A stretch of DNA of 64,000 nt from Planctomycetaceae bacterium. GTDB taxonomy: Bacteria > Planctomycetota > Planctomycetia > Pirellulales > UBA1268. Where the stretch lies: the NCBI GenBank assembly GCA_021300535.1, contig JAJTED010000007.1, forward strand, positions 5,963 through 69,962, given 5' to 3'. This document shows, piece after piece, positions 764 to 44,266 of this stretch. Under the pieces are notes generated by a model. It was not told the DNA's origin, ran no database searches, and worked only from the letters and a program-made list of their open reading frames with translations. Within the stretch, counting starts at the first letter, position 1. Each line of letters starts with the position of its first letter. The position numbers and the translations under genes are program-made.

Positions 764-818
764 TTCGCCGGGGGCGCATACCCAGCGAACGTCCGGTTCG
801 AAGTGGGCAGGCTCATCC

Positions 819-1185
819 GGCATGGACGGCGGGGTGGTTTTCGTGCCCGGTGTCCCCGGGTTTCCACCCGGGGCTTTTTGGGTTCAGCACGCCTCTCGCA
901 CAAGAAGCCCCCGGCGGAAGCCGGGGAGAATGATGCAGGCGAACCTGCGGCATCGTGCCGCAGTTCGCTTGGCGGGCCTCCGCCCGCTCACGAAAACCCA
1001 GCCCCTCCGGGCCTGGCGTTCACACAAAAAAAGCCCCCGGCGGAAGCCGGGGGACTCCGGGTGGCATGCCTTCCCTGGTGCCATGCTGTGTGGGTTTGAA
1101 CCGCAGAATTGCGTGCCGTCGTGCGGCATGGATGGCGGGCTGTTATTTACGCCCGGTGTCCCCGGGCACCCGCCCGGGGCTTGCT
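819..1185 (-). repeat. Hairpin-capped fold-back repeat family, locus 1 (orientation opposite to the reference unit at 16929)
   Basis: Half copy 819-884 ends in hairpin CCCCGGGT-ttcc-ACCCGGGG (854-873) followed by CTTTTT. A degenerate copy starts at 901 (hairpin 908-926). A full copy spans 1026-1185, with hairpins CCCCCGGC-ggaa-GCCGGGGG (1034-1053) and CCCCGGGC-accc-GCCCGGGG (1160-1179). The locus lies between the convergent 3' ends of the ATPase remnant and leuA. Confidence 0.9.
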
Positions 1186-11922: not shown

Positions 11923-13212
11923 ATGACCGTGAGTCGCTGCGGGATTTCCGTCGGTCTGGTCCGGGCCGGCCCCGTCTCCGGACGCCTGCGGGTGGACGTC
12001 CTGCGGGTTTCGTCGGCCGTCGCCCTCGTGGCGGCGGCATGTGCCGCGATCGCCGCCGCGCCGCCGGCCGACCGGTACGCGGCCGCCCGCGAGCGAATGG
12101 TCCGCGACGAAATCGCCGCCGGCGGCGTCGTCGATCCCCGGGTGCTCGAGGCGATGCGGCTCACGCCCCGGCACGAGTTCGTGCCGGCCGGGCAAAGGCA
12201 CCTCGCCTACTTCGACATGGCCCTCCCGATCGGCGCCGCCCAGACGATCTCCGGGCCGTTCGTGGTCGCCTCGATGACGGAGCAGCTGGCGCCGAGGCCG
12301 ACCGACCGCGTGCTGGAGATCGGCACGGGAAGCGGATATCAGGCGGCGGTGCTGGCGCCGCTGGTGGGGATGGTGTATTCGATCGAGATTCACGAGTCGC
12401 TCGGGGAGCGGGCCGCCCGCACGCTCGCCCGGCTCGGCTATCGCAATGTGGTCACCAAGATCGGCGACGGCTTCCGCGGCTGGCCCGAGCATGCGCCGTT
12501 CGACAAGATCATCGTCACCTGCTCGCCGGAGAACGTGCCGCAGCCGCTGGTGGATCAACTGGCCGAGGGGGGGCGGATGGTGATCCCGCTCGGCGAGCGG
12601 TTCGAGCAGACGCTCGTCCTGCTCACGAAGCGGCAGGGCAAGCTGACCCGCGAGGCCCTGGCGTCCACGCTCTTCGTGCCGATGACGGGCCAGGCGGAGG
12701 ACGAGCGACAGGTGAAGCCCGACGGTGGCCGGCCCGCGGTTCGCAATGGCGGCTTCGAGGCCGCGCTGCCCGATTCGCAGCAGCCGGCGGCCTGGTACTA
12801 CGGCCGCCAGATGGAAGTCGTCGCCGAGGCCGCCGTGCCGGAGGGAACGCGGTTCCTGAGGCTGGCGAACGCGCAGCCGGGCCGGCCGGCACAGGTGTTT
12901 CAAGGGTTTCCGGTGGATGGCTCGCGGGTCGGGAGGTTGCGGATCGAGGCCTGGCTGCGCGGCGACCGGCTGCAGGCAGGCGCGGCGGCCGCGGAACTCC
13001 CCGGGATCGCGGTGCGGTTTCAGGACGAGACGCGGTCCCGGTCAAGCACTGCCCGGATCGGACCCTGGGAAGGGACGTTCGCCTGGCGTCCGGTGGACGG
13101 GGTCGTGCTCGTGCCGCCCTGGGCCCGCGAGGCCATTCTCCAGGTGGGGATGATGGGGGGCACGGGCCGCCTCGACGTGGATGACGTGCGGATTACCGGG
13201 CTGGAGAAATAA
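11923..13212 (+). CDS. pcm: Protein-L-isoaspartate O-methyltransferase fused to a C-terminal jelly-roll (CBM4_9-like) domain
   Basis: PCMT core with the SAM motif 'VLEIGTGSGYQAAVLA', plus 'ISGPFVVASM' and 'LAEGGRMVIPLG'. N-terminal hydrophobic segment 'VSSAVALVAAACAAIAAA'. An extra ~155 aa (12745-13209) begins 'NGGFEAALP...W'. Confidence 0.85.
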   Translation: MTVSRCGISVGLVRAGPVSGRLRVDVLRVSSAVALVAAACAAIAAAPPADRYAAARERMVRDEIAAGGVVDPRVLEAMRLTPRHEFVPAGQRHLAYFDMALPIGAAQTISGPFVVASMTEQLAPRPTDRVLEIGTGSGYQAAVLAPLVGMVYSIEIHESLGERAARTLARLGYRNVVTKIGDGFRGWPEHAPFDKIIVTCSPENVPQPLVDQLAEGGRMVIPLGERFEQTLVLLTKRQGKLTREALASTLFVPMTGQAEDERQVKPDGGRPAVRNGGFEAALPDSQQPAAWYYGRQMEVVAEAAVPEGTRFLRLANAQPGRPAQVFQGFPVDGSRVGRLRIEAWLRGDRLQAGAAAAELPGIAVRFQDETRSRSSTARIGPWEGTFAWRPVDGVVLVPPWAREAILQVGMMGGTGRLDVDDVRITGLEK

Positions 13213-13416
13213 CCGCTTCCGGCGGGCGAACGGGGCTTTTTCAGGGAAAAACGCCTGGTTTTTGCGGCGCATCGAGGTGGCGCACCAGGGGCCGCAAGGT
13301 TTCTCCAGGCTGCTTGATTTACGCAATCGGCAAACTATCTTTGCCCTGTCGAGCGTCCCTCCCCCCTGAAATTGGTTCGGGGTCGGCGACGTCCGCAGCG
13401 GGAAAATCCACGGAGA

Positions 13417-14583
13417 ATGATCGCAATGTTGGCGCAGCGTCGCTGGATGAGAATGGCTGGAGTCGTCACGTTCGTCGCCGTCGCCGCAGCGACCTGTGAC
13501 GTGCAGGCCGGATGGCATCATCGCTATCGCGGCTACGGTTCGTCGGGTGGTTCTTCCGGTGGTTCCTCGGGCGGTTCGTCCGGCGGCTCCTCAGGCGGCT
13601 CCTCAGGCGGTTCGTCCGGGGGCAGCTACAGCTCGTATGGCGGCGGCTCGTCCGGCGGCAGCTACGGTTCGTACGGCTCCTACGGCTCGCATGGCAGCTG
13701 GGGTTCGCATCACGCCTACAAGCGGGCCATGCGCGCCTATCGTCACGGCTCCTCGGGCGGTTCCTCCGGCGGTTCCTCCGGCGGCAGCTCGGGTGGCTCG
13801 GCGGGGTACAGCTACGGTTCTGCGGGCGGGTCGTCCGGTGGTTCATCGGGTGGTTCGTACGGTGGCTCGTCCGGCGGTAGTTCGGGCGGCTCGTACGGCG
13901 GTTACGCCGCGCCGGCCTACTCGGCTGGCTACTCGTCCGGGATGCCGATCGAGTCGTATCGCGTGATCGGTGAGACGCCCTCGATGCCGGGCGGCGAGAT
14001 CATCGGCGCGCCCGTTCCGGCCGCGACCGATTCGACCCGCGTCGAGACGGTGCCGGCCGACGGTGCCCTGCTGGTCGTCGAGGTGCCCGCCGCCGCGAAG
14101 CTCTTCGTGAACGGCGCCGCGACCTCGTCGCAGGGGGCGGTGCGGCGGTTCCTGTCGCGCGGCCTCGTGGCCGGCAAGCAGTATGAGTTCGTCGTTCGCA
14201 TGGCGATCGATCGAGACGGCACCACGGCGGAGGAGACGAAGGTCGTCTCGCTCACCGCCGGCGGCCGCTCGCAGGTCGCCTTCTCGACGGCGGCTGCGGC
14301 CCCGGCGAAGACCAGCCTCACGCTGCACGTCCCCGCCGACGCCAAGGTCTGGCTGGCCGGCAGCGCGACGGCCTCGACGGGCGTCGTGCGGCAGTTCGAG
14401 ACCTCGAACCTGAAGGCCGGGCAGACCTGGCGGAACTACGAGATCCGCGTCGCGACCGTCGTCGACGGCCGCGAGCAGACGGTGTCGAAGGTGATCGACC
14501 TCGCCGCCGGCCAGGCGGTGGAGCTCACGCTCGACCCGGCCACGCGGACGGCTGCGGCGGACGCCACCGCCAGCCTCCGCTGA
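13417..14583 (+). CDS. Secreted Gly/Ser-rich protein with two TIGR03000-type (Planctomycetes-specific) domains
   Basis: Signal peptide 'MAGVVTFVAVAAATCDVQA', then a (GGSS)n/GSY low-complexity region. Two repeats follow: 'LLVVEVPAAAKLFVNGAATSSQGAVRRFLSRGLVAGKQYEF..' and 'LTLHVPADAKVWLAGSATASTGVVRQFETSNLKAGQTWRNYEI..'. The start could be 13417, 13426 or a later Met. Upstream lies a TTGATT-N16-TATCTT promoter-like pair (13314-13341). Confidence 0.85.
   Translation: MIAMLAQRRWMRMAGVVTFVAVAAATCDVQAGWHHRYRGYGSSGGSSGGSSGGSSGGSSGGSSGGSSGGSYSSYGGGSSGGSYGSYGSYGSHGSWGSHHAYKRAMRAYRHGSSGGSSGGSSGGSSGGSAGYSYGSAGGSSGGSSGGSYGGSSGGSSGGSYGGYAAPAYSAGYSSGMPIESYRVIGETPSMPGGEIIGAPVPAATDSTRVETVPADGALLVVEVPAAAKLFVNGAATSSQGAVRRFLSRGLVAGKQYEFVVRMAIDRDGTTAEETKVVSLTAGGRSQVAFSTAAAAPAKTSLTLHVPADAKVWLAGSATASTGVVRQFETSNLKAGQTWRNYEIRVATVVDGREQTVSKVIDLAAGQAVELTLDPATRTAAADATASLR
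13531..13940 (+). repeat. Coding low-complexity tandem repeat (12-nt GGC GGY TCS TCS periodicity) encoding (GGSS)n / GSY tracts
   Basis: Direct reading of 13531-13940: repeated 'ggtggttc(c/g)tc(c/g)ggcgg(c/t)tc..' blocks in two sub-arrays separated by 'HHAYKRAMRAYRH'. Confidence 0.85.
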
Positions 14584-16885: not shown

Positions 16886-16928
16886 GGGGGCGTCGGGGTT
16901 TGCGAGTGGGGTGGCTCGCGTGAGTCCC

Positions 16929-17450
16929 AAGAAGCCCCGGGTGGAAACCCGGGGACACCGGGCATGAACACCACCCCGCCATCCATGCTGCATAAGGGCA
17001 CGTGCTGCGCCAGTTCAAACCTGCAGCGCATGGCATACGGGACGAGATACGACCCGGAGTCCCCCGGCTTCCGCCGGGGGCTTTTTGTGGGGCTGTCACG
17101 CGACAAGAAGCCCCGGGTGGAAACCCGGGGACACCGGGCATGAAAACCACCCCGCCATCCATGCTTCATAAGGGCACGTGCTGCGCCGGTTCAAACCCGC
17201 ATCGCATGGCATACGGGACGAGATACGCCCCGGAGTCCCCCGGCTTCCGCCGGGGGCTTTTTGTGGGGCTGTCACGCGACAAGAAGCCCCGGGTGGAAAC
17301 CCGGGGACACCGGGCATGAACACCTCCCCGCCATCCATGCTGCATAAGGGCACGTTCTGCGCCGGTTCAAACCTGCATCGCATGGCATACGGGACGAGAT
17401 ACGACCCGGAGTCCCCCGGCTTCCGCCGGGGGCTTTTTGTGCCGTTCACG
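16929..17450 (+). repeat. Hairpin-capped fold-back repeat family, locus 2: three tandem 176-bp units (reference orientation)
   Basis: Units start at 16929, 17105 and 17281. Each begins AAGAAG-CCCCGGGT-ggaa-ACCCGGGG-ACACCGGGCATGAA and ends CCCGGAGT-CCCCCGGC-ttcc-GCCGGGGG-CTTTTTGTG. Units are nearly identical by eye. The array lies between rnhA and recG. Confidence 0.95.
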
Positions 17451-17524
17451 TGTGGCAAACCGCGAGCGGTGCGGTGGGCGTCACGGTTTTGGTTGCGACC
17501 TTCCAGCTCGCTTAAACTGCGGCC

Positions 17525-25288: not shown

Positions 25289-26935
25289 ATGCAAAACCAG
25301 AACGATCAGTCGCGGATGGACCGGATCGTGTCCCTCGCCAAGCGGCGCGGCTTCGTCTTTCAGTCGAGCGAGATCTACGGCGGCTTGAACGGCTTCTGGG
25401 ACTACGGCCCCCTCGGCGTGGCCCTGAAGCGCAACCTCAAGGACGCCTGGTGGCATGACATGGTCGCCGGCCACGACGAACTGGCCACGCTCACCGGCGC
25501 CCCGTCGCCCTACGAGATGACCGGCCTCGACTGCACGATCATCATGCACCCGCAGGTCTGGAAGTGCTCGGGCCACTTCGACCTGTTTCACGACTGGATG
25601 ATCGACTGCCGGGAGTCGAAGCGCCGCTACCGCTACGACCACCTCCACGGCCGCTGGGCGGCCCACCGCGGCAAGAAGGTGTTCGTGACCACCGACGCCT
25701 CGGGGGACGAGGCGGCCCCCGCGACCGTGGCCCGGGCCCAGAAGTTCTTCGGGCTGCGGGCCAAGCAGGTGGACGAGATCGAGTGGGGCGGAGGACTGGA
25801 GTCGCTCCAGCAGGCGATCGCGGCCGGTTCCGCCACCCTGGCCGACACGCTTGGCCCCGACGCCACCGCCCCCGGCTCGCTCACCGAGCCGCGGGAGTTC
25901 AACCTCATGTTCGAGACGCGGATCGGGGCCCTGGCGGGCGACGACGAGGATCGCGCCTTCCTCCGTCCCGAGACCGCCCAGGGGATTTTCGTGAACTTCA
26001 AGAACGTGCTCGACACGTCGCGGGTTCGCGTGCCGTTCGGGATCGCCCAGGTGGGCAAGAGCTTCCGCAACGAGATCACGCCGCGGAACTTCACGTTTCG
26101 CTCGCGGGAGTTCGAGCAGATGGAGATCGAGTTCTTCTGCAAGCCGGCCGACTCGGCGGCCTGGTATCGCTATTGGCGGGATCGCCGCTGGAAGTGGTAT
26201 CTCGACCTCGGGCTCACGGCGGGCAGGCTGCAGCTCCGCGAGCACGCCGCCGACGAGCTCTCGCACTACTCCGTGGGCACTGCCGACATCGAGTATGCGT
26301 TCCCGTTTCTCGCCGCCGGCGAGTTCGGCGAGCTGGAGGGCATCGCCCATCGCGGCGACTTCGACCTGCGGAGCCACATGGAGGGCAAGCTCGTCCGCCA
26401 GGACGGCGGGCTGGTCGTCGAGACCGGCCCGGATGGCAAGCCGCGGCACAAGGGGAGCGGCAAGGACCTCTCCTACTTCGACGACATCACGCGGGAGCGG
26501 TTCGTGCCGCACGTGATCGAACCCTCGGCCGGGGCGGACCGGGCCACGCTCGCCTTTCTCTGCGACGCCTACCACGAGGACGAGGTGCCCGACGAGGACG
26601 GCAAGCCGCGGAGCCGCACCGTGCTCAAGCTCCATCCGCGGCTCGCGCCCGTCAAGGCGGCGATCCTGCCGCTGGTGAAGAAGGACGGGATGCCCGAGGT
26701 GGCGATCGATCTCTACCGGGCCCTCAAGCCGCACATGGCCTGCCAGTACGACGAGAAGGGCTCCGTGGGCCGGCGCTACGCCCGGCAGGACGAGGCGGGC
26801 ACGCCCTGGTGCCTGACGGTCGACGGCCAGTCGCTCGCCGACCGGACGGTGACGCTCCGCGACCGCGATTCGCTCGTGCAGCAGCGGGTGGCGATCGATG
26901 AGGTCGTGGACCTGCTCCGCGACAAACTGTCATGA
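25289..26935 (+). CDS. glyQS: Glycine--tRNA ligase (class II, alpha2 type)
   Basis: 'RRGFVFQSSEIYGGLNGFWDYGPLG', 'LRPETAQGIFVNF', 'GKSFRNEITPRNFTFRSREFEQMEIEFF', 'VIEPSAGADRATLAFL'. Start set at ATG 25289 (MQNQND). Confidence 0.95.
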   Translation: MQNQNDQSRMDRIVSLAKRRGFVFQSSEIYGGLNGFWDYGPLGVALKRNLKDAWWHDMVAGHDELATLTGAPSPYEMTGLDCTIIMHPQVWKCSGHFDLFHDWMIDCRESKRRYRYDHLHGRWAAHRGKKVFVTTDASGDEAAPATVARAQKFFGLRAKQVDEIEWGGGLESLQQAIAAGSATLADTLGPDATAPGSLTEPREFNLMFETRIGALAGDDEDRAFLRPETAQGIFVNFKNVLDTSRVRVPFGIAQVGKSFRNEITPRNFTFRSREFEQMEIEFFCKPADSAAWYRYWRDRRWKWYLDLGLTAGRLQLREHAADELSHYSVGTADIEYAFPFLAAGEFGELEGIAHRGDFDLRSHMEGKLVRQDGGLVVETGPDGKPRHKGSGKDLSYFDDITRERFVPHVIEPSAGADRATLAFLCDAYHEDEVPDEDGKPRSRTVLKLHPRLAPVKAAILPLVKKDGMPEVAIDLYRALKPHMACQYDEKGSVGRRYARQDEAGTPWCLTVDGQSLADRTVTLRDRDSLVQQRVAIDEVVDLLRDKLS

Positions 26936-27756
26936 AGCCCGCCCTGGCTACCGTTTCGAGCCTGCAGGCGCCGCTGGTGACGATCCTGGAGGACTACGCC
27001 GCGGGCCACGTGGACGCGATCGACCTGTGGCTCGGCCATGCCGACGCGTTCGTGGCGGAGCAGGGCGTCGCGGCCCTCGCGGATCGGCTCGCCGCCCACG
27101 GCATCGCCGCGGTGGCCGCGTCCTTTCAGGGTGGCCTGCTCACGAGCCAGGGCGACGCCCGCCGGGAGCACTGGCGGCACTTCGAGGATCGGCTCGCGTT
27201 GTGCCGCGATCTCGGCATCCCTGTGCTCGTGGTCGCCGGCGACGCGTTCGGCCCCCTGGCGGCCGAGGATCTGGGCCGACTCTCGGCCAGTCTCGTCGAG
27301 GCGGCGAAGCGGGCGGCCGACGTCGGCATCCGGTTGGCGCTCGAGTTCGACGCCCGGGCGAGCTTCCCCAACAACCTGCAGTCGGCGGTCGCGGTGGTCG
27401 AGGACGTCGGCTCACCGGCCCTCGGCGTGTGCCTCGACTGGTTCCACTGGACCGTGGGGCCGAGCAAGCCGCTCGACCTCTGGCTGCTGTCGCGGGACAA
27501 CCTCGCCCACGTGCAGTTGTCGGACATCGCCGATGTGCCCCGCGAGATGGCCGCCGACGCCGATCGGATCCTGCCGGGCGAAGGCAGTTCTCCGTGTGAC
27601 GACCTGATTCGCCGCTTGCGGGAGATCGGCTACGCGGCCGCGGTCGCCGTCGAGACACCCAATCCCCGCCTGTGGAGCATCCCGCCACGGCAGTTCGGCG
27701 AGGTCGCGTTCACGGCGGTGCGGAAGCTGCTGGGCCAGGCGGACGAGCGGGGGTGA
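26932..27756 (+). CDS. Sugar phosphate isomerase/epimerase (xylose-isomerase-like TIM barrel) family protein
   Basis: 274 aa. The pattern 'IRLALEF...', 'LGVCLDWFHW', 'AHVQLSD' and 'ILPGEG' is typical of AP_endonuc_2/TIM-barrel proteins. ATGA overlap with the glyQS stop. Confidence 0.7.
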   Translation: MKPALATVSSLQAPLVTILEDYAAGHVDAIDLWLGHADAFVAEQGVAALADRLAAHGIAAVAASFQGGLLTSQGDARREHWRHFEDRLALCRDLGIPVLVVAGDAFGPLAAEDLGRLSASLVEAAKRAADVGIRLALEFDARASFPNNLQSAVAVVEDVGSPALGVCLDWFHWTVGPSKPLDLWLLSRDNLAHVQLSDIADVPREMAADADRILPGEGSSPCDDLIRRLREIGYAAAVAVETPNPRLWSIPPRQFGEVAFTAVRKLLGQADERG

Positions 27757-27772: not shown

Positions 27773-28032
27773 GAACGGCACAAAAAGCCCCGGGCGGGAG
27801 CCCGGGGACTCCGGGTGGCATCTCGTCCCGGGTGCCATGCGGCGTGAGTCTGCATCGGGAAATCACGTGCCGTCGTGCCGTCGTGCCGTCGTTCCGTCGT
27901 GCGGTCGTGGATGGCGGGCTGGTTTTTGTGCCCGGTGTCCCCGGGTTTCCACCCGGGGCTTCCTGCCGCGCCGACTCCACAAAAAGCCCCCGGCGGGAGC
28001 CGGGGGACTCCGGGTATGCAAACCATCCCGGC
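27773..28032 (-). repeat. Hairpin-capped fold-back repeat family, locus 3 (one full 184-nt-core copy plus one terminal-arm copy)
   Basis: Full copy ~27779-27962 with hairpins CCCCGGGC-ggga-GCCCGGGG (27788-27807) and CCCCGGGT-ttcc-ACCCGGGG near 27940-27959. It contains an internal octamer run, cgtgccgt x ~5.6 (27866-27910). A second left-arm copy has hairpin CCCCCGGC-ggga-GCCGGGGG (27987-28006). Confidence 0.92.
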
Positions 28033-28065: not shown

Positions 28066-28707
28066 TCAGGGATATTCCTTGAGCAGGTTGCTGCGGGCCT
28101 CGATTTCGTCGATCGGCCGCAGCCGCTGTGATGCTCCTGGCGGCAGGATCGGGAAGTGGCGGGAGCCGGTCAGCGCATCGACGAGTTCGTGGCAAAAACC
28201 CGGATGGGTCACCCAGAGCGACGGATCGTAGCGCCGAAGGTCGACGGCGACGGAGTAGCTGCGGAGCGTCTTGCGGCGTCGCTTCACATATTGCGGGAAG
28301 AAGGAAATGGCCAGTTCCCGCAACGTGCGATAAATCGGGTCTCGGTGCCGAAGGAACGGGCTGTTGCTCTTCGAGATCGCGCCCCAGCAGCCGCCGCGGC
28401 GGAATAGGGCGATGACGTGGTCCACGTCGCCGCGGGCCGCGCCCAGGTCCATGAGCAATGGCGGCTGCCCTGCGAGCCAGAGCCCACAGGCTGCGACGAA
28501 CGCCGCCTCGACGCAGTGGGCCGTCCCGGCCCGCAGCGTTTCCACGACGGAGCGGGCCGTGGGACCGTCGTGCTGGTGGTTCCAGGGGATCGCATTGACG
28601 AAGTCCTGAATCCGCTCCGGCGTGCGCAGATTCGCGAGCCGGGTCGCGAGCGGCCGCGGCAGGCCGAGGCCGATTCCGAGTTGCACGCCAGTTGCGCGGG
28701 CCATCAC
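28066..28707 (-). CDS. Hypothetical protein (possible papain/transglutaminase-like Cys-His fold)
   Basis: 213 aa with ordinary composition. 'GTAHCVEAAFVAACGLW' followed by 'VDHVIALF' and 'WGAISKSN' is arranged like a Cys...His catalytic pair, but this is a weak guess. The gene is visibly less GC-rich than its neighbours (two 60-nt lines counted at 60% and 58% G+C). Confidence 0.65.
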   Translation of the reverse strand: MMARATGVQLGIGLGLPRPLATRLANLRTPERIQDFVNAIPWNHQHDGPTARSVVETLRAGTAHCVEAAFVAACGLWLAGQPPLLMDLGAARGDVDHVIALFRRGGCWGAISKSNSPFLRHRDPIYRTLRELAISFFPQYVKRRRKTLRSYSVAVDLRRYDPSLWVTHPGFCHELVDALTGSRHFPILPPGASQRLRPIDEIEARSNLLKEYP

Positions 28708-28890
28708 CAGATTCCTGAAAACTCAATTCCGTGACGCGGAGCGTACCACCGGTCGCCGCCCGTGACAGCGGTGCTGGCGCCTTTTGATGTTGCGCCAAGT
28801 GGCTCGAAAGAGCGTCGCCGCTGCAGGAATCCGGTGGCAACCGTTGTTTTGCAGATCCTTTGAATTGGGGATCGGTCTCATCACCCGTCC

Positions 28891-29146
28891 AGGAAGCCCC
28901 GGGTGGAAACCCGGGGACACCGGGTATGAAAACCGTCCCGCCATCCATGCCGAATGACGGTGCGCCATTTCCCGGTGCAAACCCACATTGCATGGCACCA
29001 GGTAAGGCATGCTACCCGGAGTCCCCGGGCTCCCGCCCGGGGCTTTTTGTGGGGTCGGCGGGGCAGGAAGCCCCGGGTGGAAACCCGGGGACACCGGGTA
29101 TGAAAACCGTCCCGCCATCCATGCCGAATGACGGTGCGGGAAACCC
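28891..29146 (+). repeat. Hairpin-capped fold-back repeat family, locus 4 (one full copy plus one half copy, 174-nt period)
   Basis: Full copy 28891-29052: AGGAAG-CCCCGGGT-ggaa-ACCCGGGG ... CCCCGGGC-tccc-GCCCGGGG (29023-29042)-CTTTTTGTGG. A second copy starts at 29065 and breaks off near 29146. Confidence 0.92.
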
Positions 29147-29221
29147 AAAAGTGGCTGGCCGACGGCCCGATCCCATACAATCCTCGTCGTCGCGGTTCGA
29201 GTGCCCTGGAGATCTTTCTCG

Positions 29222-33840: not shown

Positions 33841-35814
33841 TCAACGGCCGCCGGGCCGCTTGGCTGGTGGCCCGCCGATGACGCGGATGTCCTTGTCGAG
33901 CGGCAGGCCGGTCTGGGGCCGCTCGCGGAGGATCGCGAGCGCCTGGGGCGATACGGTCCGCAGGGACGACATCGACAGATAGCCGGGTGCGCGGACGACC
34001 ACCCGGGCGATCGCGGCGGAATCGGGGCCCGACAGGTCGGTGATCCCGGGGAACTGGGCGCTGAAGCTCGGGCAGTCGGCCAGCGCGCGGGCCGTTTCCA
34101 CGGACAGCGACTTCAGCCCGGGCATGACGAGCTCCACCCCCACGTGTCGGCCGAGCCAGGCTGCCGCTTCCGGCGTGAGCGACTCGACCGCCAGCAGTCG
34201 CAGACTGCCCCGCTGCCGCCACAGCCCGCGGGCGACGTCCTCGGGAATGTGGCGGAGACCGAGTTCCAGGGTCTCGGTATGCCGACGGAACGCCGCCGCC
34301 GCGTCCGCGTCGAGCGCCACCAGGCCGCGCAGCTGGATCGTGCCGCGTCGGGACGCCAAGGCCTGCGCCACGCCGGTGGTGAGATGGCCGATCCGCGGCA
34401 GCCATCCATCCCACATCTCGACGGCCGCCAGTCCCTGGGCGGCTTCCGGCGAAAGCCGCGCGATCCCGTGGAGCTGGATTTGGGGGCCGGTCTTCCGTCC
34501 CAACGCGTCGGCCGTCTCGGGCCCGATCGATTCCAAGCCGCTCAGGCGCAGCAGCGCATGCGAGCCCATGTACACACCACCGCCACGCGGCGCGTCGGTG
34601 CCGCGACGCAGGCCGTCCTCCGGTTCGAGCAGGGCGGTGGCGGCTACGGCATCGAGCCGGCGAAGATTCGGCAGGTCGAGCCCCTCCTGTTCCCGCCCGA
34701 GTGCCCGGGCGACTTCAGGATCCAGGCGTTCCAAGCCGGAAAGCACGAGGCGGGACGGTCCCTCGGCGAGCAGCCGCGCCTCCTCGGGCGTGACCGCGGT
34801 CACGCCGAGTTCGAGTTCCCCCGGAAAGGCGACCAGTTCCCGCGCGGTCTCCGCCGAGATCTCCGTGATCCCGGCCAGCGCCAGTGACGTGTGGACGCCC
34901 GCCCAGTGCCGGGCCACTTCAGGTGGAAACGACTGCAGTCCGCCGAAGCTGAACATGGTGGCGAACTGGCCTTTGGGCTCGGGCCGCATCAGCAGGGCCG
35001 CCACGTCCGGCGTCAGGGTCGCGACGCCGTCGAGCCAGATGGCACCGGCCGTGCCGGCGTGGATCGCCTGCGCCATGTCGGGCGTGAGCTGCTGGAGGCC
35101 CGAAAGGTCGACGGTCCCCTTGAAGGTGGCCAGCGACCGCAGGGCCGCGACCGAGATTTCGCCGAGGCCCGTGAGCCGGAGAATGCCGCCCTGCGGGTGG
35201 CCGCGGCCCCGGATCGCCGCTGCCACGTTCTCCGGCAGGCTGGTCAGACCGGGGAGCGACACGTCGCGAACCCCGGCCAGGGCCGAGGCGGCTGCCGGTT
35301 CCAGGGCGGTGATCGCGGGAAGCCGCAGGCGGCCGTTGAAACTGCCCAGGCCGCGGGCCGCCTCGGGGGACAGCCGCTCGACGGCGGGCAGATGGAGAAA
35401 ATCCGACCAGTTGTTGGCGACACGCTGCCACTCGGGGGCGCGGGTTTCCGCCAAAAAATCCATGACCCTCAACAGCAGCAGTCCTTGATGCGACGCCCGC
35501 CGCGGTGCGTGGGACAGTTCCTGCCAGAAGCGGTCGATCTGTTCCGGTGTCATCCCGGCGGCCTTGAAGGCGGCTTCGAACTGGGCGTCGCTCGATCCGG
35601 CGAGCGGCGGCTTCGCGGCCTGCTGACTCCGGATCGTGGCCGCGTCCTTGGCGGTGAGCTCAGTGATCGTGAGGAGATCGACCGGCGGCACGGGATTCGC
35701 CGCTCGGGCCAGACCGCACAAGACCGTCATGCCGAGCCAGGCCCCGCAGGCCAGCCAGGGCACGACGGTCGCGGGGCGACGGGCACCCGGCGCAGGCCGC
35801 GGCTGCGGTCTCAT
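33841..35814 (-). CDS. Secreted LRR-like repeat protein
   Basis: 657 aa. N-terminal hydrophobic segment 'VVPWLACGAWLGMTVLCGLARA'. About 20 tandem ~24-25-aa repeats of the form L-x-L-x-G-L-x-x-[LI]-[ST]-P-[ED]-x-A-x-x-L, e.g. 'LDLSGLQQLTPDMAQAI', 'LVLSGLERLDPEVARAL', 'LRLSGLESIGPETADAL'. ATGA overlap with the upstream gene. Confidence 0.8.
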   Translation of the reverse strand: MRPQPRPAPGARRPATVVPWLACGAWLGMTVLCGLARAANPVPPVDLLTITELTAKDAATIRSQQAAKPPLAGSSDAQFEAAFKAAGMTPEQIDRFWQELSHAPRRASHQGLLLLRVMDFLAETRAPEWQRVANNWSDFLHLPAVERLSPEAARGLGSFNGRLRLPAITALEPAAASALAGVRDVSLPGLTSLPENVAAAIRGRGHPQGGILRLTGLGEISVAALRSLATFKGTVDLSGLQQLTPDMAQAIHAGTAGAIWLDGVATLTPDVAALLMRPEPKGQFATMFSFGGLQSFPPEVARHWAGVHTSLALAGITEISAETARELVAFPGELELGVTAVTPEEARLLAEGPSRLVLSGLERLDPEVARALGREQEGLDLPNLRRLDAVAATALLEPEDGLRRGTDAPRGGGVYMGSHALLRLSGLESIGPETADALGRKTGPQIQLHGIARLSPEAAQGLAAVEMWDGWLPRIGHLTTGVAQALASRRGTIQLRGLVALDADAAAAFRRHTETLELGLRHIPEDVARGLWRQRGSLRLLAVESLTPEAAAWLGRHVGVELVMPGLKSLSVETARALADCPSFSAQFPGITDLSGPDSAAIARVVVRAPGYLSMSSLRTVSPQALAILRERPQTGLPLDKDIRVIGGPPAKRPGGR

Positions 35815-38800
35815 TGTCCACCTCCGGCCGGTGTGGCCGATTGCTTGGTGATCATCGCTTCACATGCCGCCCGGGCGCGGCCGGCCGCCGCGGCCAGCGC
35901 GGTGTTCGGCGACCGGGCCAGTTCGGCGAGACGCTCCCCCATCCACGTGATCGAGGCGGCCGCATCGATCGCGGCGTCTGGCGGCGGCTCCAGACGCCGG
36001 GCGAGCATCCGCGCGGCGCGGCGCACGTCGCCGCGACCGGCGGCTCGGGCCGCCGCGTCGAGGATCGCGGGCAGGGGCTCGTCGCCGTAGGGATCGAGTT
36101 CCGCCACGGCCGCGAGCGCGACGAAATCGACCTCGTCGTCGAGCATTCGCACGAGCACGGGCAGCGCGGCGGGCACCACCAGCGCCTGCCTGCCGATCTC
36201 CGCCACGGCGGCCGCCCGCTTCAGGGGATCGGCGCTGTGGGTGTCGACCTCGGGATACTCGACGAGATACGTGTAGGTGGTGCCGAATCGGGAGAGCTGA
36301 CCGCGGGCCGCCGCCGCGACCTGCGGCGGGCCGTCCGCAGCCAGACGGTGCAGCACCTTGGCATCGACCATCCGCAGTGCGTCGAGCCGGCGCAGGACGT
36401 CGATGGCCGCGAGCTGCTCGGTCGGGCGGGAGTTGTCGAGCAGAATCCGCGCGAACGCCTCGTCTCCGTGGCAGCGGAACTGGGGCCGGTTGTCCGAGAC
36501 GAGTCGATCGATCGCGGCCCGTCGTTCCTGGTAGGCCTTCAGGCCAGCCAGCCGCGCAGGCGGCGTATCGGCTCCCAGCGCCGCGACGGCGGCCCGCAGT
36601 TTCGCGTCGCCGCGCATGGCGGCCTCGGCGTCCGCCGGCGTCCGCGGCGGAGTGGCCGCGCCGCGGCGCCGGATCCGGTGCACGGCGTTTTCGTGGAGAT
36701 TGAAGGTGACGAGCGTGTCTCCGAGCCGCTCGATGTTCGTCCACCGCAGGGAGTCGGGCTGTGGCAGATACCAGACGCCGTCGGTGTCGAGGAGCCGGCC
36801 GGGGCCCGCGAACAGATGGCCGTCGAGCACCGCCATGCCCGCCAACACCTCGGGGACGAAGGTCTGTTCCTCGGTGACGAACCCCAGCAGCGGGACGTGT
36901 CCGCAGTCGTCGAGGTCGATCTCGTAGGGCACGCGTGAATACAGCGACCAGTTGGCGACCGCCTTGCGGCCGCCGTCCCAGAACAGACCGCGGATGCTGC
37001 CCATGAGCACCCGCCGCCAGCCACCGTCCCGGAGACTGTGGCACCACAGGCCGCTGCGTGACCGGTCGCCGCCGACGGTCAGCCAGAGCCGATGCCGCAC
37101 CGGATCGGCCAGCATGCCGGTGATCTCGTAGGGCTCGCCGCCATCGAGCTGATGACGCGGCACAACGGCGGCAGTGGAGGCGAACGTCGCGGCGCCGGTG
37201 TCCGGGGCGTAGGTCGCCAGGCCGCGCGGCACGGCCATGTACAGGCGGCCGTCGAGCCAGGCCATCCGTCCGATGCTGTTCGAAGGCAGACCGTCTTGTT
37301 CGCCGACCGCCGTCAGGCCGCGGCCATCGACGACGAACAGGCCGTGCCCGAAGGTGCCGATGAATGCCCGGCCGTCACCGGCGGCCAGCCCGGTGACCGC
37401 CTCCGTCGGCAGGTCGAAGGCCGCCACCTCGGCGAGCAGCCCGCCGCCGGGGCCGCAGCGGGTCAACAGGTGGGGCCAGGCCAGAGCCGCGCCGGGGCCG
37501 CCCCCCTTCGGTGCCGCCGCGGCCCAGAGTAACAGGATCGAGCTGCCCTGGTCGGCCGCCTGGCGATCGACCGCCGCGGCGACGAGCCGCGGTTGGCCGG
37601 GCGGGGCGTTGGTGAACGTCACCGGCTCGATCACGTAATCTGCCCAGGGGCCGACCGGTGGCGGCGGGGGCGGGGCGACCTCGCCCTTGCCGGCCTGCGG
37701 ATCGAAGCGGTTGCCGATGATCCGCCGGTAGCGGGCGATCTGCGACCGCGTCTCGCCGGAATACGCCCGTGCCTTCAGCAACGCCTCGACGCGCCGGTGC
37801 AGGCCGCCGGCCTGGCCCTCGGTCATGACCACCGCATGGGCGAACAGCTCGGGGCTGCGCATCAGGAGACCGCCGTCACCGCTTTGCTCCGCCGTGGCGA
37901 CGAGCGCTTCCGCGTATGCCGTCGCCCGCCCCTCGAAGGCGAGTCGCTGGAGCGCCACGGCGGCGATCTGCGCGACGGTCTTGTAGGCGGCCATCTCGAA
38001 GAATGTCCATGGCGGATCGGCCTTCCGGAAATAGATGTCGAGGATGCGTTCCGCCGCCGTCAGGCTCCGGGCGCCGGGCTGGTTCAGCAGGCACGACAGG
38101 CCGACGATTTGCAGCGCCGGATCGGAGCCGCCGACGAGGCCATCGACGAGCGGCGTGATCTCGTCCAAGGGCGGACGAGCGGGGCGATCCATGACCGCCA
38201 TGAAGAGCGCGGTGTGATACTGATTGGCGAAGGCCTCGCGGGCGATGACGACCCCGGCGTCCTTTTGCCACACCGTGAAGCTGGGGCCGTTCGGCAGTCG
38301 ATCGGCCAGCGCCTCCGTCGCCAGTTCCCGCTGCAGGCCGGTGATGTACCGCATGAACTCGGCGGCGGTCGGACGCGGCGCTCCCGGGACGAGACGGTCG
38401 ACGAGCGCGAGCTGCCGCACGAGGACGAATCCCGTCGTGGGCCGCTCGGCGGCGCGGCGAAACGCGAGGACGCGATCCGCGGTCGCCCGCTCCACGGCAC
38501 GGATGCGGTCGCGGATCTCCGCCTCCTCTGCCGACGCGGGGGCCGGCGTCGGCGACCAGATGCTGTGCAGCAGTTCGACGGGAAACAGCGCCTCCCAGGC
38601 CAGGGATTCGGTCGTCCGCTCGTAGAAGTCGCCGATCAACTCCGCCTGTCGCAGCCGCGCCTGCGCCACGTCCACGGGCCGCGCATCGGCCGGCAGGGCC
38701 GCCTGGCTGAACGCGTTCGCCAGGTCGAACGTTTCCCGGCAGGGATGGAGAACGTAGGCCGCTTCGGCCAGCCGGGACGCCTGCGGCCCGTCGCCGATCC

Positions 38801-39725
38801 GGTCGAGCCGCCGTGCCCGTTCGAGGAGCAGTTTCGCCTCCGCGGTCGGGCTGGCGGTCTCGGGCTCGACCGCGCCGGCCAACATGTCGGCCAACGCCGC
38901 CGCGATCGCATCGCGGGCCGCGCCGGTCTTGGCGGGCGTGCTGACGGTCCGCTCCCGCCGCTTCCCGTCCTTGAGCGGCAGCAGGGCCAGTGCGATCACG
39001 AACGTGTCCCCCTCGCGCCGCAGGCTACCCTCGAGCAGCAAGGCCGACGCCCGGAGATCGAGCTCGGTGCCGGTCAGGTCGCGCTCGGTGGTGAGTCGGC
39101 GGAGCTGTTCCCGCTCGAGGACGACGACGTCGGGAAGCCGCTGCAGATCCTGCGCGGCGAACACCGACAGCGCCCGGGCGGTGGCCACGGTGGAGCCCGT
39201 CTCCTCCTCGCTCCGCAGGCCGACGATTCCGACCAGCCGGCGGCTCTCCGCGGCCGCGCGGAGTTTTCGCAGGCCCGTGCGCAGGTCCGCCAGCAGCACT
39301 GCCCGGTCGGCGAGCAGGTCGGCGGCCGCCCATTCGCCGTCCGCGAGCCGAATGCCGGTGCGGGTCTCCACCACCCGCACCCGCACCCGCGGCGGCGTCT
39401 CCGCGGAGCCCGCGTCGAGCATCACGATGGCGTCGGCCGCGAGCAGCTGGCCGAGTTTCATGCCCGCCGCGGCGTCGCCGGCAGCGGCCAACTTCAGTTC
39501 ATCGACCACACGGGCGACGGCCTGCCGCTCCACGAGCCGCACGCCCGCGTCGCTCGACAGGTCGGTCGTGAGCAGATCGGCGAGCGGGGCCCGCGTCGCC
39601 GCGGTGGGTACGATGGCCACCGTCGGGGGGGGAGGCTCCGCGGCCGCTGCACGGGAAACCCATGCCAGGCCGCAGGCCGCGATCGAGGCCAGGCAAGCCG
39701 CACGGTAAACGGAAACGATGTGCAT
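35811..39725 (-). CDS. Giant secreted multidomain protein: tandem CsgG/LpoB-like modules, helical region, Reg_prop-like beta-propeller, HEAT-like repeats
   Basis: 1304 aa with signal peptide 'ACLASIAACGLAWVSRAAAA'. Module 1 reads 'VAIVPTAATRAPLADLLTTDLSSDAGVRLVERQAVARVVDELKL'. Module 2 reads 'VGIVGLRS...VVVLEREQLRRLTTERDL'. A propeller-type motif 'DGLPSNSIGRMAWLDGRLYMA' is encoded at 37237-37295. The C-terminus is HEAT-like: 'ALPVLVRMLDDEVDFVALAAVAELDPYGDEPLPAILDAA'. Confidence 0.85.
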   Translation of the reverse strand: MHIVSVYRAACLASIAACGLAWVSRAAAAEPPPPTVAIVPTAATRAPLADLLTTDLSSDAGVRLVERQAVARVVDELKLAAAGDAAAGMKLGQLLAADAIVMLDAGSAETPPRVRVRVVETRTGIRLADGEWAAADLLADRAVLLADLRTGLRKLRAAAESRRLVGIVGLRSEEETGSTVATARALSVFAAQDLQRLPDVVVLEREQLRRLTTERDLTGTELDLRASALLLEGSLRREGDTFVIALALLPLKDGKRRERTVSTPAKTGAARDAIAAALADMLAGAVEPETASPTAEAKLLLERARRLDRIGDGPQASRLAEAAYVLHPCRETFDLANAFSQAALPADARPVDVAQARLRQAELIGDFYERTTESLAWEALFPVELLHSIWSPTPAPASAEEAEIRDRIRAVERATADRVLAFRRAAERPTTGFVLVRQLALVDRLVPGAPRPTAAEFMRYITGLQRELATEALADRLPNGPSFTVWQKDAGVVIAREAFANQYHTALFMAVMDRPARPPLDEITPLVDGLVGGSDPALQIVGLSCLLNQPGARSLTAAERILDIYFRKADPPWTFFEMAAYKTVAQIAAVALQRLAFEGRATAYAEALVATAEQSGDGGLLMRSPELFAHAVVMTEGQAGGLHRRVEALLKARAYSGETRSQIARYRRIIGNRFDPQAGKGEVAPPPPPPVGPWADYVIEPVTFTNAPPGQPRLVAAAVDRQAADQGSSILLLWAAAAPKGGGPGAALAWPHLLTRCGPGGGLLAEVAAFDLPTEAVTGLAAGDGRAFIGTFGHGLFVVDGRGLTAVGEQDGLPSNSIGRMAWLDGRLYMAVPRGLATYAPDTGAATFASTAAVVPRHQLDGGEPYEITGMLADPVRHRLWLTVGGDRSRSGLWCHSLRDGGWRRVLMGSIRGLFWDGGRKAVANWSLYSRVPYEIDLDDCGHVPLLGFVTEEQTFVPEVLAGMAVLDGHLFAGPGRLLDTDGVWYLPQPDSLRWTNIERLGDTLVTFNLHENAVHRIRRRGAATPPRTPADAEAAMRGDAKLRAAVAALGADTPPARLAGLKAYQERRAAIDRLVSDNRPQFRCHGDEAFARILLDNSRPTEQLAAIDVLRRLDALRMVDAKVLHRLAADGPPQVAAAARGQLSRFGTTYTYLVEYPEVDTHSADPLKRAAAVAEIGRQALVVPAALPVLVRMLDDEVDFVALAAVAELDPYGDEPLPAILDAAARAAGRGDVRRAARMLARRLEPPPDAAIDAAASITWMGERLAELARSPNTALAAAAGRARAACEAMITKQSATPAGGGQ

Positions 39726-43397: not shown

Positions 43398-43631
43398 GCC
43401 CGCCCGGCCCCGCGGAGCCGGCGTGAGCCTGGGTGCTCGCGGGACTGCCGGGAAGCCCGAATCGTCAGATGAGGGAATCCGCGTCGCTCCACCCGCAGCC
43501 AGGATGGCGAAGTGCAGCGGCGACTTTGGCCGCCCCCGAAGCCGGTGCTCCATCAAAGTCGAATGGGCGTAACCTACTCGCGGCTTGTGCTGTTGCGGGT
43601 TCTCCAGTCGTGGGCTCGGTTTGACATGCGC

Positions 43632-43798
43632 GAACGGCACAAAAAGCCCCCGGCGGGAGCCGGGGGACGCCGGGTTGCATCTCATCCCGGGTGCCATGCG
43701 ATGTGGGGTTGAACCGGGAAATCACGGTGCGTGATGCGGCATGGACGGCGGGATGGTTTTCACACCTGGAGTCCCCGGGTTGCCACCCGGGGCTTCTT
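43632..43798 (-). repeat. Hairpin-capped fold-back repeat family, locus 5 (single full copy)
   Basis: GAACGGCAC-AAAAAG-CCCCCGGC-ggga-GCCGGGGG-ACGCCGGG ... CCTGGAGT-CCCCGGGT-tgcc-ACCCGGGG-CTTCTT. Lies between convergent genes ending at 43397 (+) and 44267 (-). Confidence 0.9.
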
Positions 43799-43992
43799 GG
43801 GCCGGTGACGGGACCGATCGCCTGTGTACGGGTGGTCAAAACACGATTCGCCGAGGCAACACCAGTCCCAAGAGGCAGACTGGCTCAACGACGGGGCGAG
43901 AAGTGCGAGTTATGCCCAAGTCGAATGCGGTCTACCTGTGCGTGGACAAAACCCTCCATGGCACTGTTGTTCGGCACGAGGGTTGCGGTTTC

Positions 43993-44103
43993 TCCCTCTC
44001 CTTCTCCTTCTGGGAGAGGGGCGGGGTGAGGGTGCAGGCAATCGCCGCAGCTTCGGCAGCACCCTCACCCGGCCTCCGGACGGCCTCTCCCCGAGAGGAG
44101 AGG
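43993..44103. repeat. Composite of three GC-rich inverted repeats (structured intergenic element)
   Basis: Hairpin 1: ccctctc(43995-44000)...gagaggg(44014-44020). Hairpin 2: GGTGAGGGTGC (44025-44035) / GCACCCTCACC (44059-44069), with an inner gccg-cagctt-cggc. Hairpin 3: CCTCTCC (44084-44090) ccgaga GGAGAGG (44097-44103). Confidence 0.75.
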
Positions 44104-44266
44104 CGAGATCGGCGACGCTGCCGTCAAGCCGCACATGTCGTGCCGAACAGAGGTGCCTGCATGGCCTTTGTCCACGTGTTTGTCCCCTGGGCCGACCGGC
44201 GGAAACGCCAAGGGTTTCCCCGGCCGGCATGCCTCGCATCCTGCTCGGGCAGACTTGTTCCACATG

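Follow-up and report, generated by a model that had tools for sequence, protein, structure and literature searches.

A modular family of hairpin-ended intergenic repeats, probably non-autonomous mobile elements, in an uncultured freshwater planctomycete

Background

Bacterial miniature inverted-repeat transposable elements (MITEs), such as Correia/NEMIS of Neisseria, RUP, MITEAba12 and Nezha, are small (100-400 bp), non-coding, fold-back elements that carry terminal inverted repeats and a target-site duplication, occur in tens to hundreds of intergenic copies, and are present in some relatives and absent from others. For Correia elements, an additional role in ending or processing transcripts is known. 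Here we describe a repeat family with the structure and distribution of MITEs, found in a stretch of 64,000 nucleotides from a Planctomycetaceae bacterium (contig JAJTED010000007.1, positions 5,963 to 69,962; the whole stretch is called the window below) and built around a unit of 176 bp. We consider it likely that the family consists of lineage-specific, non-autonomous MITE-like mobile elements whose fold-back core is the 176-bp repeat, and whose host is an uncultured freshwater planctomycete (Pirellulales) with a G+C content of 70%. The family differs from the MITEs named above in several respects. In the 1.48 Mb of DNA fetched for comparison, drawn from lake metagenomes, a metagenome-assembled genome (MAG) of 94% identity and three further Pirellulales/Planctomycetaceae MAGs, the searches turned up no parent insertion sequence whose ends match. 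The ends of the inner unit are perfect hairpins, half-elements and head-to-tail arrays are common, and the family is modular, with components denoted P, U, E and X that nest inside other palindromic repeats.

A second group of related systems are the repetitive extragenic palindromic (REP) sequences, the bacterial interspersed mosaic elements (BIMEs) and the REPINs with their REP-associated tyrosine transposase (RAYT) of enterobacteria and pseudomonads. Here too, palindromic modules of 20-35 nt occur as singlets, as inverted doublets that fold into long hairpins, and as alternating clusters; the BIMEs of E. coli likewise alternate in orientation with long and short linkers, and REPs likewise prefer the 3' ends of genes and convergent gene pairs. 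REPs have been proposed to serve as terminators or mRNA stabilisers, and GTAG-tagged REPs are reported in the Planctomycetes-Verrucomicrobia-Chlamydiae (PVC) group (PMC3733652). The family described here, in contrast, has no GTAG/CGTC tag and no RAYT was found for it, its long form has an 8-bp duplication and outer repeats, and its doublet spacer is long (~100 nt) and conserved. It is an unnamed new family of modular, hairpin-ended MITE/BIME-like repeats. Such families are apparently little described in Planctomycetota, and this one is well defined by empty sites, a target-site duplication and nested insertions, in an abundant freshwater lineage known from metagenomes only.

Rhizobium-specific intergenic mosaic elements (RIME) and ERIC/IRU sequences are intergenic, at least 100-130 bp long, contain large palindromes, and are dispersed and lineage-specific. 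The present family resembles them as a set of dispersed, lineage-specific palindromic intergenic elements, but the sequences are unrelated; to our knowledge, neither tandem arrays of this length nor outer repeats with a duplication have been described for RIME or ERIC/IRU. Bidirectional Rho-independent terminators share with the family an 8-bp all-G+C stem, a 4-nt loop and a T5 run, with a mirror hairpin and CTTCTTG on the opposite side, as well as the location between convergent genes. Ordinary terminators, unlike the family, are not 80% identical over 170 nt and have no inverted-repeat arms or target-site duplications. Correia, REP and ERIC are known examples of MITEs and REPs with a second function in terminating transcripts or stabilising mRNA, and because of these precedents the combination of a MITE/BIME with a terminator is not new in kind.

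Structure of the repeat unit

Copies in the window, which has a G+C content of 70.7%, were located by self-blast and with an nhmmer profile made from six full copies (E-values down to 1e-54). One locus is an array of three 176-bp units spanning 16929-17449, which are 96% alike. Tandem Repeats Finder gives a single array call here (16928-17441, period 176, 2.9 copies, 96% matches, score 972) and agrees with nhmmer. The three tandem units of about 176 bp starting at 16929, 17105 and 17281 in the initial annotation are confirmed and far beyond chance. The array is flanked by decayed remnants of two further modules, a left arm (P) and a right arm (E), to which we return below. All features are on the plus strand:

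16903..16928, plus strand: short and decayed P-arm remnant before the array, aligning with the proximal P of other copies (TTTGC..GGG..CG.C.CGT.A..CC, followed directly by AAGAAG)
16929..17104, plus strand: array unit 1 (nhmmer E=3e-53; Tandem Repeats Finder; terminator scan)
16935-16954, plus strand: A-end hairpin of unit 1, CCCCGGGT GGAA ACCCGGGG, -18.3 kcal/mol
17061-17080, plus strand: B-end hairpin of unit 1, CCCCCGGC TTCC GCCGGGGG, -21.7 kcal/mol
17081-17089, plus strand: T-run of unit 1, CTTTTTGTG, followed by a 15-nt linker
17105..17280, plus strand: array unit 2, 96.6% identity with unit 1 (Tandem Repeats Finder, nhmmer)
17281..17449, plus strand: array unit 3, without linker, identity 97.5% (Tandem Repeats Finder, nhmmer)
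17450..17500, plus strand: decayed E arm after the array, starting CCGTTCACGTGTGGCAAACCGCGAG and aligning with E arms elsewhere

Each unit starts AAGAAG-CCCCGGGT-GGAA-ACCCGGGG-ACACCGGG and finishes CCCGGAGT-CCCCCGGC-TTCC-GCCGGGGG-CTTTTTGTG. It thus contains two 8-bp G+C hairpins in opposed orientation, with 4-nt loops, which lie within inverted terminal modules of ~34 nt; the inner inverted-repeat ends read CAAGAAGCCCCGGG and CCCGGGGGCTTTTTG. The ends had been described from the sequence as imperfect inverted repeats of ~34 nt, each a hairpin in itself, and this holds for repeats of 33-41 nt that are 78-88% complementary. The proposed fold-back of the whole unit is likewise borne out on both strands: the unit folds into a single long hairpin, as RNA or as DNA, well below dinucleotide-shuffled controls (z about -4 to -4.8). 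Unit length is 165-176 bp, and neither the unit nor the ~345-bp composite described below contains a conserved open reading frame (ORF).

An alignment of 37 full copies has a mean column identity of 81%. Its 5' end, CAAGAAG-CCCCGGGT-GGAA-ACCCGGGG-ACACCGGG, and its 3' end, ACCCGGAGT-CCCCCGGC-TTCC-GCCGGGGG-CTTTTTGTG, are near-invariant, hairpin and T-run being the best-conserved part of the unit and the centre of ~100 nt more variable. The conservation of the 3' end is independent evidence, since the loci were fetched without using it. Variation within the stems is two-sided and preserves the local hairpins: T:A is replaced by C:G in hairpin A, and the fifth pair of hairpin B changes from C:G to G:C in several loci.

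With F for a full unit, 5 for a 5' half and 3 for a 3' part, the arrangements over all loci comprise F (101), solo 5' halves (49), solo 3' parts (28), F5 (21), 3F (19) and 35 (19). Arrays reach five or six units (for example FFFFF and 3FFFF5). Along the arrays the hairpin types alternate in orientation, and spacers alternate between long (~100 nt) and short (7-25 nt).

Extent of the family

When species-representative genomes are scanned for a 28-mer taken from the 5' hairpin, 45 loci come up in four GTDB species genomes, namely 41 in the MAG CAZJHQ01, 2 in a Planctomycetaceae MAG and 1 each in two Pirellulales MAGs of a lake series. Among metagenome contigs, a scan with a degenerate pattern gives at least 120 loci, and all those listed are from freshwater samples. 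In the fetched DNA there are 408 non-redundant matches, of which 185 are full length and about 220 partial, which makes the family a dispersed one that extends well beyond the window. There is no match in PLSDB plasmids or IMG/VR viral contigs.

The locus of CAZJHQ01 that lies between the genes for RNase H and RecG (L012) is ~94% identical to the array locus of the window and carries one unit in place of three. Judged by their sequences, CAZJHQ01 and the window are different genomes. The record of CAZJHQ01 (L001-L045) bears the title 'uncultured Candidatus Kuenenia sp.'; with a G+C content of about 70% it is clearly not Kuenenia, and the title is probably wrong. The RecG relatives of the window protein are labelled as Pirellulales or Planctomycetes MAGs. 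The other three MAGs have no genes in common with the loci compared.

The composite element and its insertion sites

The flanks of the unit, denoted U in this context, are often themselves repeats. The left arm P (~110 nt) precedes ~40% of solitary copies, and the right arm E (~50 nt) follows about one third of them. P begins TTTTGATGTTGCGC and E ends GCGCAACATCAAAA, which form outer inverted repeats of 14-15 bp, and the ~345-bp composite P-U-E therefore has terminal inverted repeats of its own. The A hairpin follows P in nearly all of the 41 P matches, the few exceptions being truncated or offset matches; the B hairpin precedes E in 33 of 34 E matches, the exception being a partial match of 19 nt. 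The core between P and E is either U or an inverted pair of a different module, X, and the same B hairpin and T-run closes the otherwise unrelated modules U and X. In the initial annotation the 176-bp unit was the element. It is a real repeat, and in its longest form it is the central fold-back of the composite with outer inverted repeats, rather than the whole element.

Evidence for insertion comes from three loci (L149, L075 and L157, the last orthologous to L022 and L120) at which P-U-E is nested in another palindromic repeat, Q, with different neighbour genes at each. Joined after P-U-E has been taken out, the flanks match seven uninterrupted copies of Q right through the junction, except for 8 extra nucleotides. 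These are duplications of the target CTCACGCC, with the pairs ctcacgcc/CTCGCGCC, ctcacgcc/CGCACGCC and cttgcgtt/CTTGCGAC at the three loci. From this alignment we conclude that the 8-nt duplication flanking P-U-E is a target-site duplication. The hexamer CCGTTC also recurs on both sides of U within the composite, where it may be either a duplication or arm sequence.

A comparison of orthologous spacers shows that close relatives differ in the presence and absence of copies. Between the RNase H gene and recG, the window has a spacer of 639 bp with 3 units and L012 one of 284 bp with 1 unit; relatives without a unit have spacers of 50, 33 and 21 bp at RecG identities of 88, 86 and 83%, respectively. 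Similarly, 309 bp follow the AP_endonuc_2 gene in the window before the next gene, compared with a spacer of 58 bp in one relative. The orthologous sites, which had been suggested as a check for presence/absence polymorphism, are thus empty at both spacers, and no copy of U is found in about 90 kb from the relatives compared.

Three further relatives (RecG identity 88-91%) have unrelated palindromic inserts of 110-282 bp in the RNase H-recG spacer. This spacer is a hot spot, with a different palindromic insert in each case (L058 5891-6080, L059 5719-6000, L060 1006-1149). A loose direct repeat surrounds the entire insert of the window, GGGCGTCGGGGTTTGCGA (16886-16905) and GGGCGTCACGGTTTTGGTTGCGA (17475-17497); it may be a long insertion duplication or part of the decayed arms.

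Search for a transposase

No transposase domain is present in the window genes covered by Pfam and by the annotation of syntenic contigs, that is, outside the two long ORFs 35811-39620 and 47906-50731. Pfam scans comprised the genes at 1-4.5 kb and most of those at 32-64 kb, with eight genes recognised by eye only, and 4.5-32 kb were covered through the precomputed Pfam annotation of syntenic contigs. A tblastn search of the fetched DNA, with its ~400 copies, for IS608 TnpA and E. coli RayT returned nothing below E=0.2; with these two queries the result serves as a lead only and has less weight than a rigorous profile search. To this extent the earlier statement that no transposase or RAYT-like gene lies in the window agrees with our results.

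We also looked at genes that are enclosed by copies. The 20 small genes with copies on both sides are all housekeeping genes according to Pfam and include MraZ, ScpB, a solute-binding SBP_bac_3 protein, RbsD/FucU, a desaturase, a cation efflux protein and SCO1. Pairs of an A end and a B end, or of outer repeats, that lie 0.35-6 kb apart in the 1.48 Mb enclose TatC, a membrane protein or nothing, and no plausible transposase. The search for transposases with matching ends, which the initial annotation called for genome-wide, is thus negative within these 1.48 Mb, and a RAYT may lie elsewhere in the genome. Because no transposase was found in the covered DNA, we regard the family as non-autonomous.

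Genomic context and terminator-shaped ends

Context was counted over 113 distinct intergenic regions after removal of redundant orthologous loci. The neighbouring genes converge on the region in 54 cases, are co-directional in 49 and diverge in 10. The convergent fraction (48%) compares with 182 of 1069 background pairs of neighbouring genes (17%) in the same DNA, corresponding to an odds ratio of 5.9 (p=4e-16). At least one gene end faces the element in 103 of the 113 regions, and the orientation of the unit in co-directional regions is unbiased (26 versus 23).

The B hairpin with its T-run has the canonical shape of an intrinsic terminator, which was not pointed out in the initial annotation: 8 of 8 pairs are G-C, the loop has 4 nt, CTTTTTGTG follows, and ΔG is -21.7 kcal/mol. 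On the opposite strand, the A end has 7 of 8 G-C pairs followed by CTTCTTG. With this shape at both ends, transcription running into a full unit in either direction would encounter a hairpin and a U-rich run at the far end. In a terminator scan of the 64 kb, all 12 sites with at least 7 G-C pairs and a T-run belong to the repeat family. The other terminator-like sites are weak and mostly intragenic, and three of the four scanned stretches have about as many of them as chance would give; the fourth, 36-56 kb, has 14 sites against 6.8 expected, of which the family supplies two only. Shape and position together suggest that the copies probably serve as bidirectional terminators.

The sole non-family hairpin and T-run directly past a gene end lies at 13241-13258, after the gene 11923-13212, and may be a native terminator. 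Among other signals considered, a sigma-54 or extracytoplasmic function (ECF)-type promoter in the P arm was rejected on spacing, by eye, and readings of the core as an integration host factor (IHF) site or a sigma-70 promoter are unsupported.

Interpretation of the family

A MITE or REP/BIME-like nature of the repeats had been suggested, and the many dispersed copies, the empty orthologous sites, and the inverted repeats and 8-bp duplication of the longest form support it. The REP/BIME part of the suggestion stands for the architecture, which is BIME-like, and falls for membership in the REP/REPIN systems, given the lack of a GTAG/CGTC tag and of a RAYT and the presence of a target-site duplication. 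If the family is MITE-like, copies would have been inserted by a transposase acting in trans. The terminal inverted repeats and the 8-bp duplication make a DDE-type enzyme, cut-and-paste or copy-out, the most likely candidate; the outer repeat and the duplication also narrow the hunt for the cognate transposase. After insertion, local recombination or replication slippage would give rise to arrays and solo halves. Local shifts in copy number, by tandem amplification and microsatellite expansion, are seen. Copies would be kept chiefly where they are harmless or useful, that is, downstream of genes. An outward hairpin and U-run at each end would there stop transcription from both sides, strongly at CTTTTTGTG and more weakly at CTTCTTG, and mRNAs that end at the element would carry a long hairpin at the 3' end.

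Several points weigh against this interpretation. The target-site duplication is seen for the composite P-U-E inside Q only, and the three Q cases may descend from fewer insertions, if Q[P-U-E] later spread jointly. No consistent duplication abuts the bare 176-bp unit: the longest word shared by the two flanks has a mean of 5.4 against 5.1 for unrelated flanks, in a test whose right-hand window started 8 nt beyond GTG, and 120 anchored flank pairs inspected by themselves likewise reveal nothing regular. P-E elements without the hairpin core did not appear in this data set, in which every locus was fetched via the A-end motif and which is hence biased to core-carrying loci; U may therefore be either an integral core or a nested insert. 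No autonomous element or transposase with matching ends is found in the window or among the genes flanked on both sides, and genes enclosed by a pair of outer repeats are likewise absent. As for termination, it is deduced from shape and position only, and in the 10 divergent regions a terminator is without obvious use.

A further step would be to regard the family as a cassette that is both mobile and a bidirectional terminator. Intrinsic terminators native to the lineage would be few, copies downstream of genes would be kept for ending and stabilising transcripts, and much of the Rho-independent termination would be supplied by a transposable element, with the hairpin module common to U and X (stem, loop and T-run) as the selected part. 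We hold this to be possible, though doubtful; if the terminator reading is true, the family would illustrate how a selfish element can turn into the main supplier of a basic signal of gene expression.

Other explanations account for parts of the data. It is improbable that the repeats are a REP/REPIN-type system, in which single-stranded hairpins are recognised by a single-copy HUH tyrosine transposase (RAYT), doublets are REPINs and arrays are BIMEs. Such a system would explain why each unit end is a 20-nt palindrome, why solo hairpin modules, inverted doublets and arrays of alternating orientation are all common, and why the bare unit has no directly abutting duplication; the enrichment between convergent genes is also that of REPs (PMC3733652). 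However, REPs are defined by a conserved unpaired GTAG (or CGTC) tag at the stem end (PMC3733652), and here the stems are flanked instead by AAG and ACACCGGG at the A end and by GAGT and CTTTTTG at the B end. Furthermore, no Y1/RAYT-like ORF was detected by tblastn in the 1.48 Mb (with the two queries above, as a lead only), the genes flanked on both sides are housekeeping genes, and Y1 transposition does not make an 8-bp target-site duplication such as that of the composite. Even less probable is that the element encodes a small RNA in many copies, or acts as a structured cis-regulatory RNA, with every 176-nt unit transcribed and ending at a terminator of its own. The unit does finish in a perfect intrinsic-terminator shape and folds well under shuffled controls (z about -4.8), and tandem arrays of small RNAs occur in other bacteria; NsiR1 gives a weak sub-threshold match via the terminator. 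Yet no Rfam family matches at threshold: the whole window at gathering thresholds, and 28700-29210 at relaxed E-values, give only sub-threshold hairpin matches (miRNA precursors, SorX, NsiR1), in keeping with the earlier remark that the repeat matches no named repeat or RNA family. The RNAalifold consensus is the fold-back, with 34 pairs, 0 compensatory changes and no conserved central structure; both strands fold equally, and G·T wobble variants, as read from the listed variants, have no strand bias. The flanks upstream of the units belong to three or more unrelated classes and hence offer no shared promoter. Units point at random with respect to genes, and half-units are common. An independent small-RNA gene family is therefore unlikely.

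The copies might, alternatively, be non-mobile terminator or regulatory motifs of the host, held by selection to one optimal hairpin and multiplied by local duplication and gene conversion only. This would fit a hairpin and T-run that form the most conserved part, the family type of all strong terminator-like sites in the window, and the closure of the unrelated modules U and X by the same hairpin. We nevertheless think it very improbable: ~100 nt outside the hairpins are conserved as well (81% mean column identity) among loci with unrelated flanks, the outer inverted repeats and the 8-bp duplication have matching empty sites, presence and absence differ at orthologous sites of close relatives, and some copies lie in divergent promoter regions. 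That the stems are DNA-uptake signal sequences is scarcely credible, even though in Neisseria and Haemophilus such sequences are known as inverted repeats within terminators. In length the conserved unit far exceeds an uptake signal, copies number tens to low hundreds where thousands are typical, and the motif was not seen within genes; nothing suggests natural competence in the lineage, for which no search was made.

Further copies in the window

The initial annotation counted, at five loci and always between genes, seven full copies and four partial ones. The count is reproduced by nhmmer, together with the terminator scan for the hairpin 908-927(-), with coordinates within a few bases, and ORFs called with a codon-usage model place every window copy between genes. 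The full copies according to nhmmer are 1022-1184(-), 16929-17096, 17105-17272, 17281-17447, 27774-27964(-), 28891-29056(+) and 43633-43798(-), and the partial copies are 808-878(-), 27974-28030(-) and 29065-29139(+). Apart from the array, the window contains the following features:

808..878, minus strand: solo 5' half, A-end hairpin and arm (nhmmer model positions 2-72, E=3.5e-15)
880..1030, minus strand: module X, a different repeat of ~125 nt that ends in a B-type hairpin (908-927) and T-run, with 85-90% identical copies in L006, L015, L019, L024, L028 and L041 (terminator scan)
1022..1184, minus strand: full unit directly downstream of the minus-strand gene 1229-2773 (nhmmer E=5e-48)
27774..27964, minus strand: full unit with an expanded 8-bp microsatellite (27866-27909) in its core (nhmmer, Tandem Repeats Finder)
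27974..28030, minus strand: solo 3' part, B-end hairpin and T-run (nhmmer model positions 110-165; terminator scan)
28782..28890, plus strand: P (left) arm of a long composite, starting with the outer inverted repeat TTTTGATGTTGCGCC, 90% identity to the P consensus
28891..29056, plus strand: full unit (nhmmer E=1.9e-50)
29065..29139, plus strand: 5' half after a full unit, arrangement F5 (nhmmer model positions 1-75, E=1.9e-19)
43585..43631, minus strand: E (right) arm of a composite (blastn 83% to the E consensus; alignment)
43633..43798, minus strand: full unit in a convergent intergenic region (nhmmer E=2e-49)
43799..43870, minus strand: P-like left arm of a composite (alignments)

The full unit at 27774..27964 begins 17 nt past the stop codon of the gene 26932-27756. 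Its microsatellite (CGTGCCGT/CGTGCGGT) varies within the population, the lake metagenome contigs (L047-L054) having as few as 3 repeats and as many as 16 or more, with the upper end above 16, and many metagenome contigs end within the copy that matches 27774-27964, at the microsatellite. Together with the variable array length, it offers ready strain markers. The repeats break contigs and may yield chimeric joins, which bears on the quality of MAGs in this group. In L046 (4843-5180), the AP_endonuc_2 gene is joined to a different downstream gene (IU_nuc_hydro), with the switch within the element; either the genome was truly rearranged through the repeat or the contig is chimeric from assembly.

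Neighbouring repeats and other observations

The 869-bp intergenic region that contains the copy 43633-43798 also harbours a second, unrelated inverted-repeat pair with arms of 51 nt at 43941-44176, which encloses a third palindrome at 44020-44074 (GGCGGGGTGAGGGTGC / GCACCCTCACCCGGCC). Both kinds of repeat recur in the relatives L060 and L059, where they fill the RNase H-recG spacer, so that the clade carries several unrelated, mutually nesting families of palindromic repeats.

A group II intron reverse transcriptase (RVT_1 and GIIM domains) is located just downstream of recG in L055 (12801-14270) and L056 (12800-14269), from a relative whose RecG is 88% identical, and is absent from the window. 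Finally, overlapping arrays with periods of 12, 24 and 36 nt (CGGTTCCTCCGG and similar) occur at 13536-13901 and are probably a low-complexity coding repeat.

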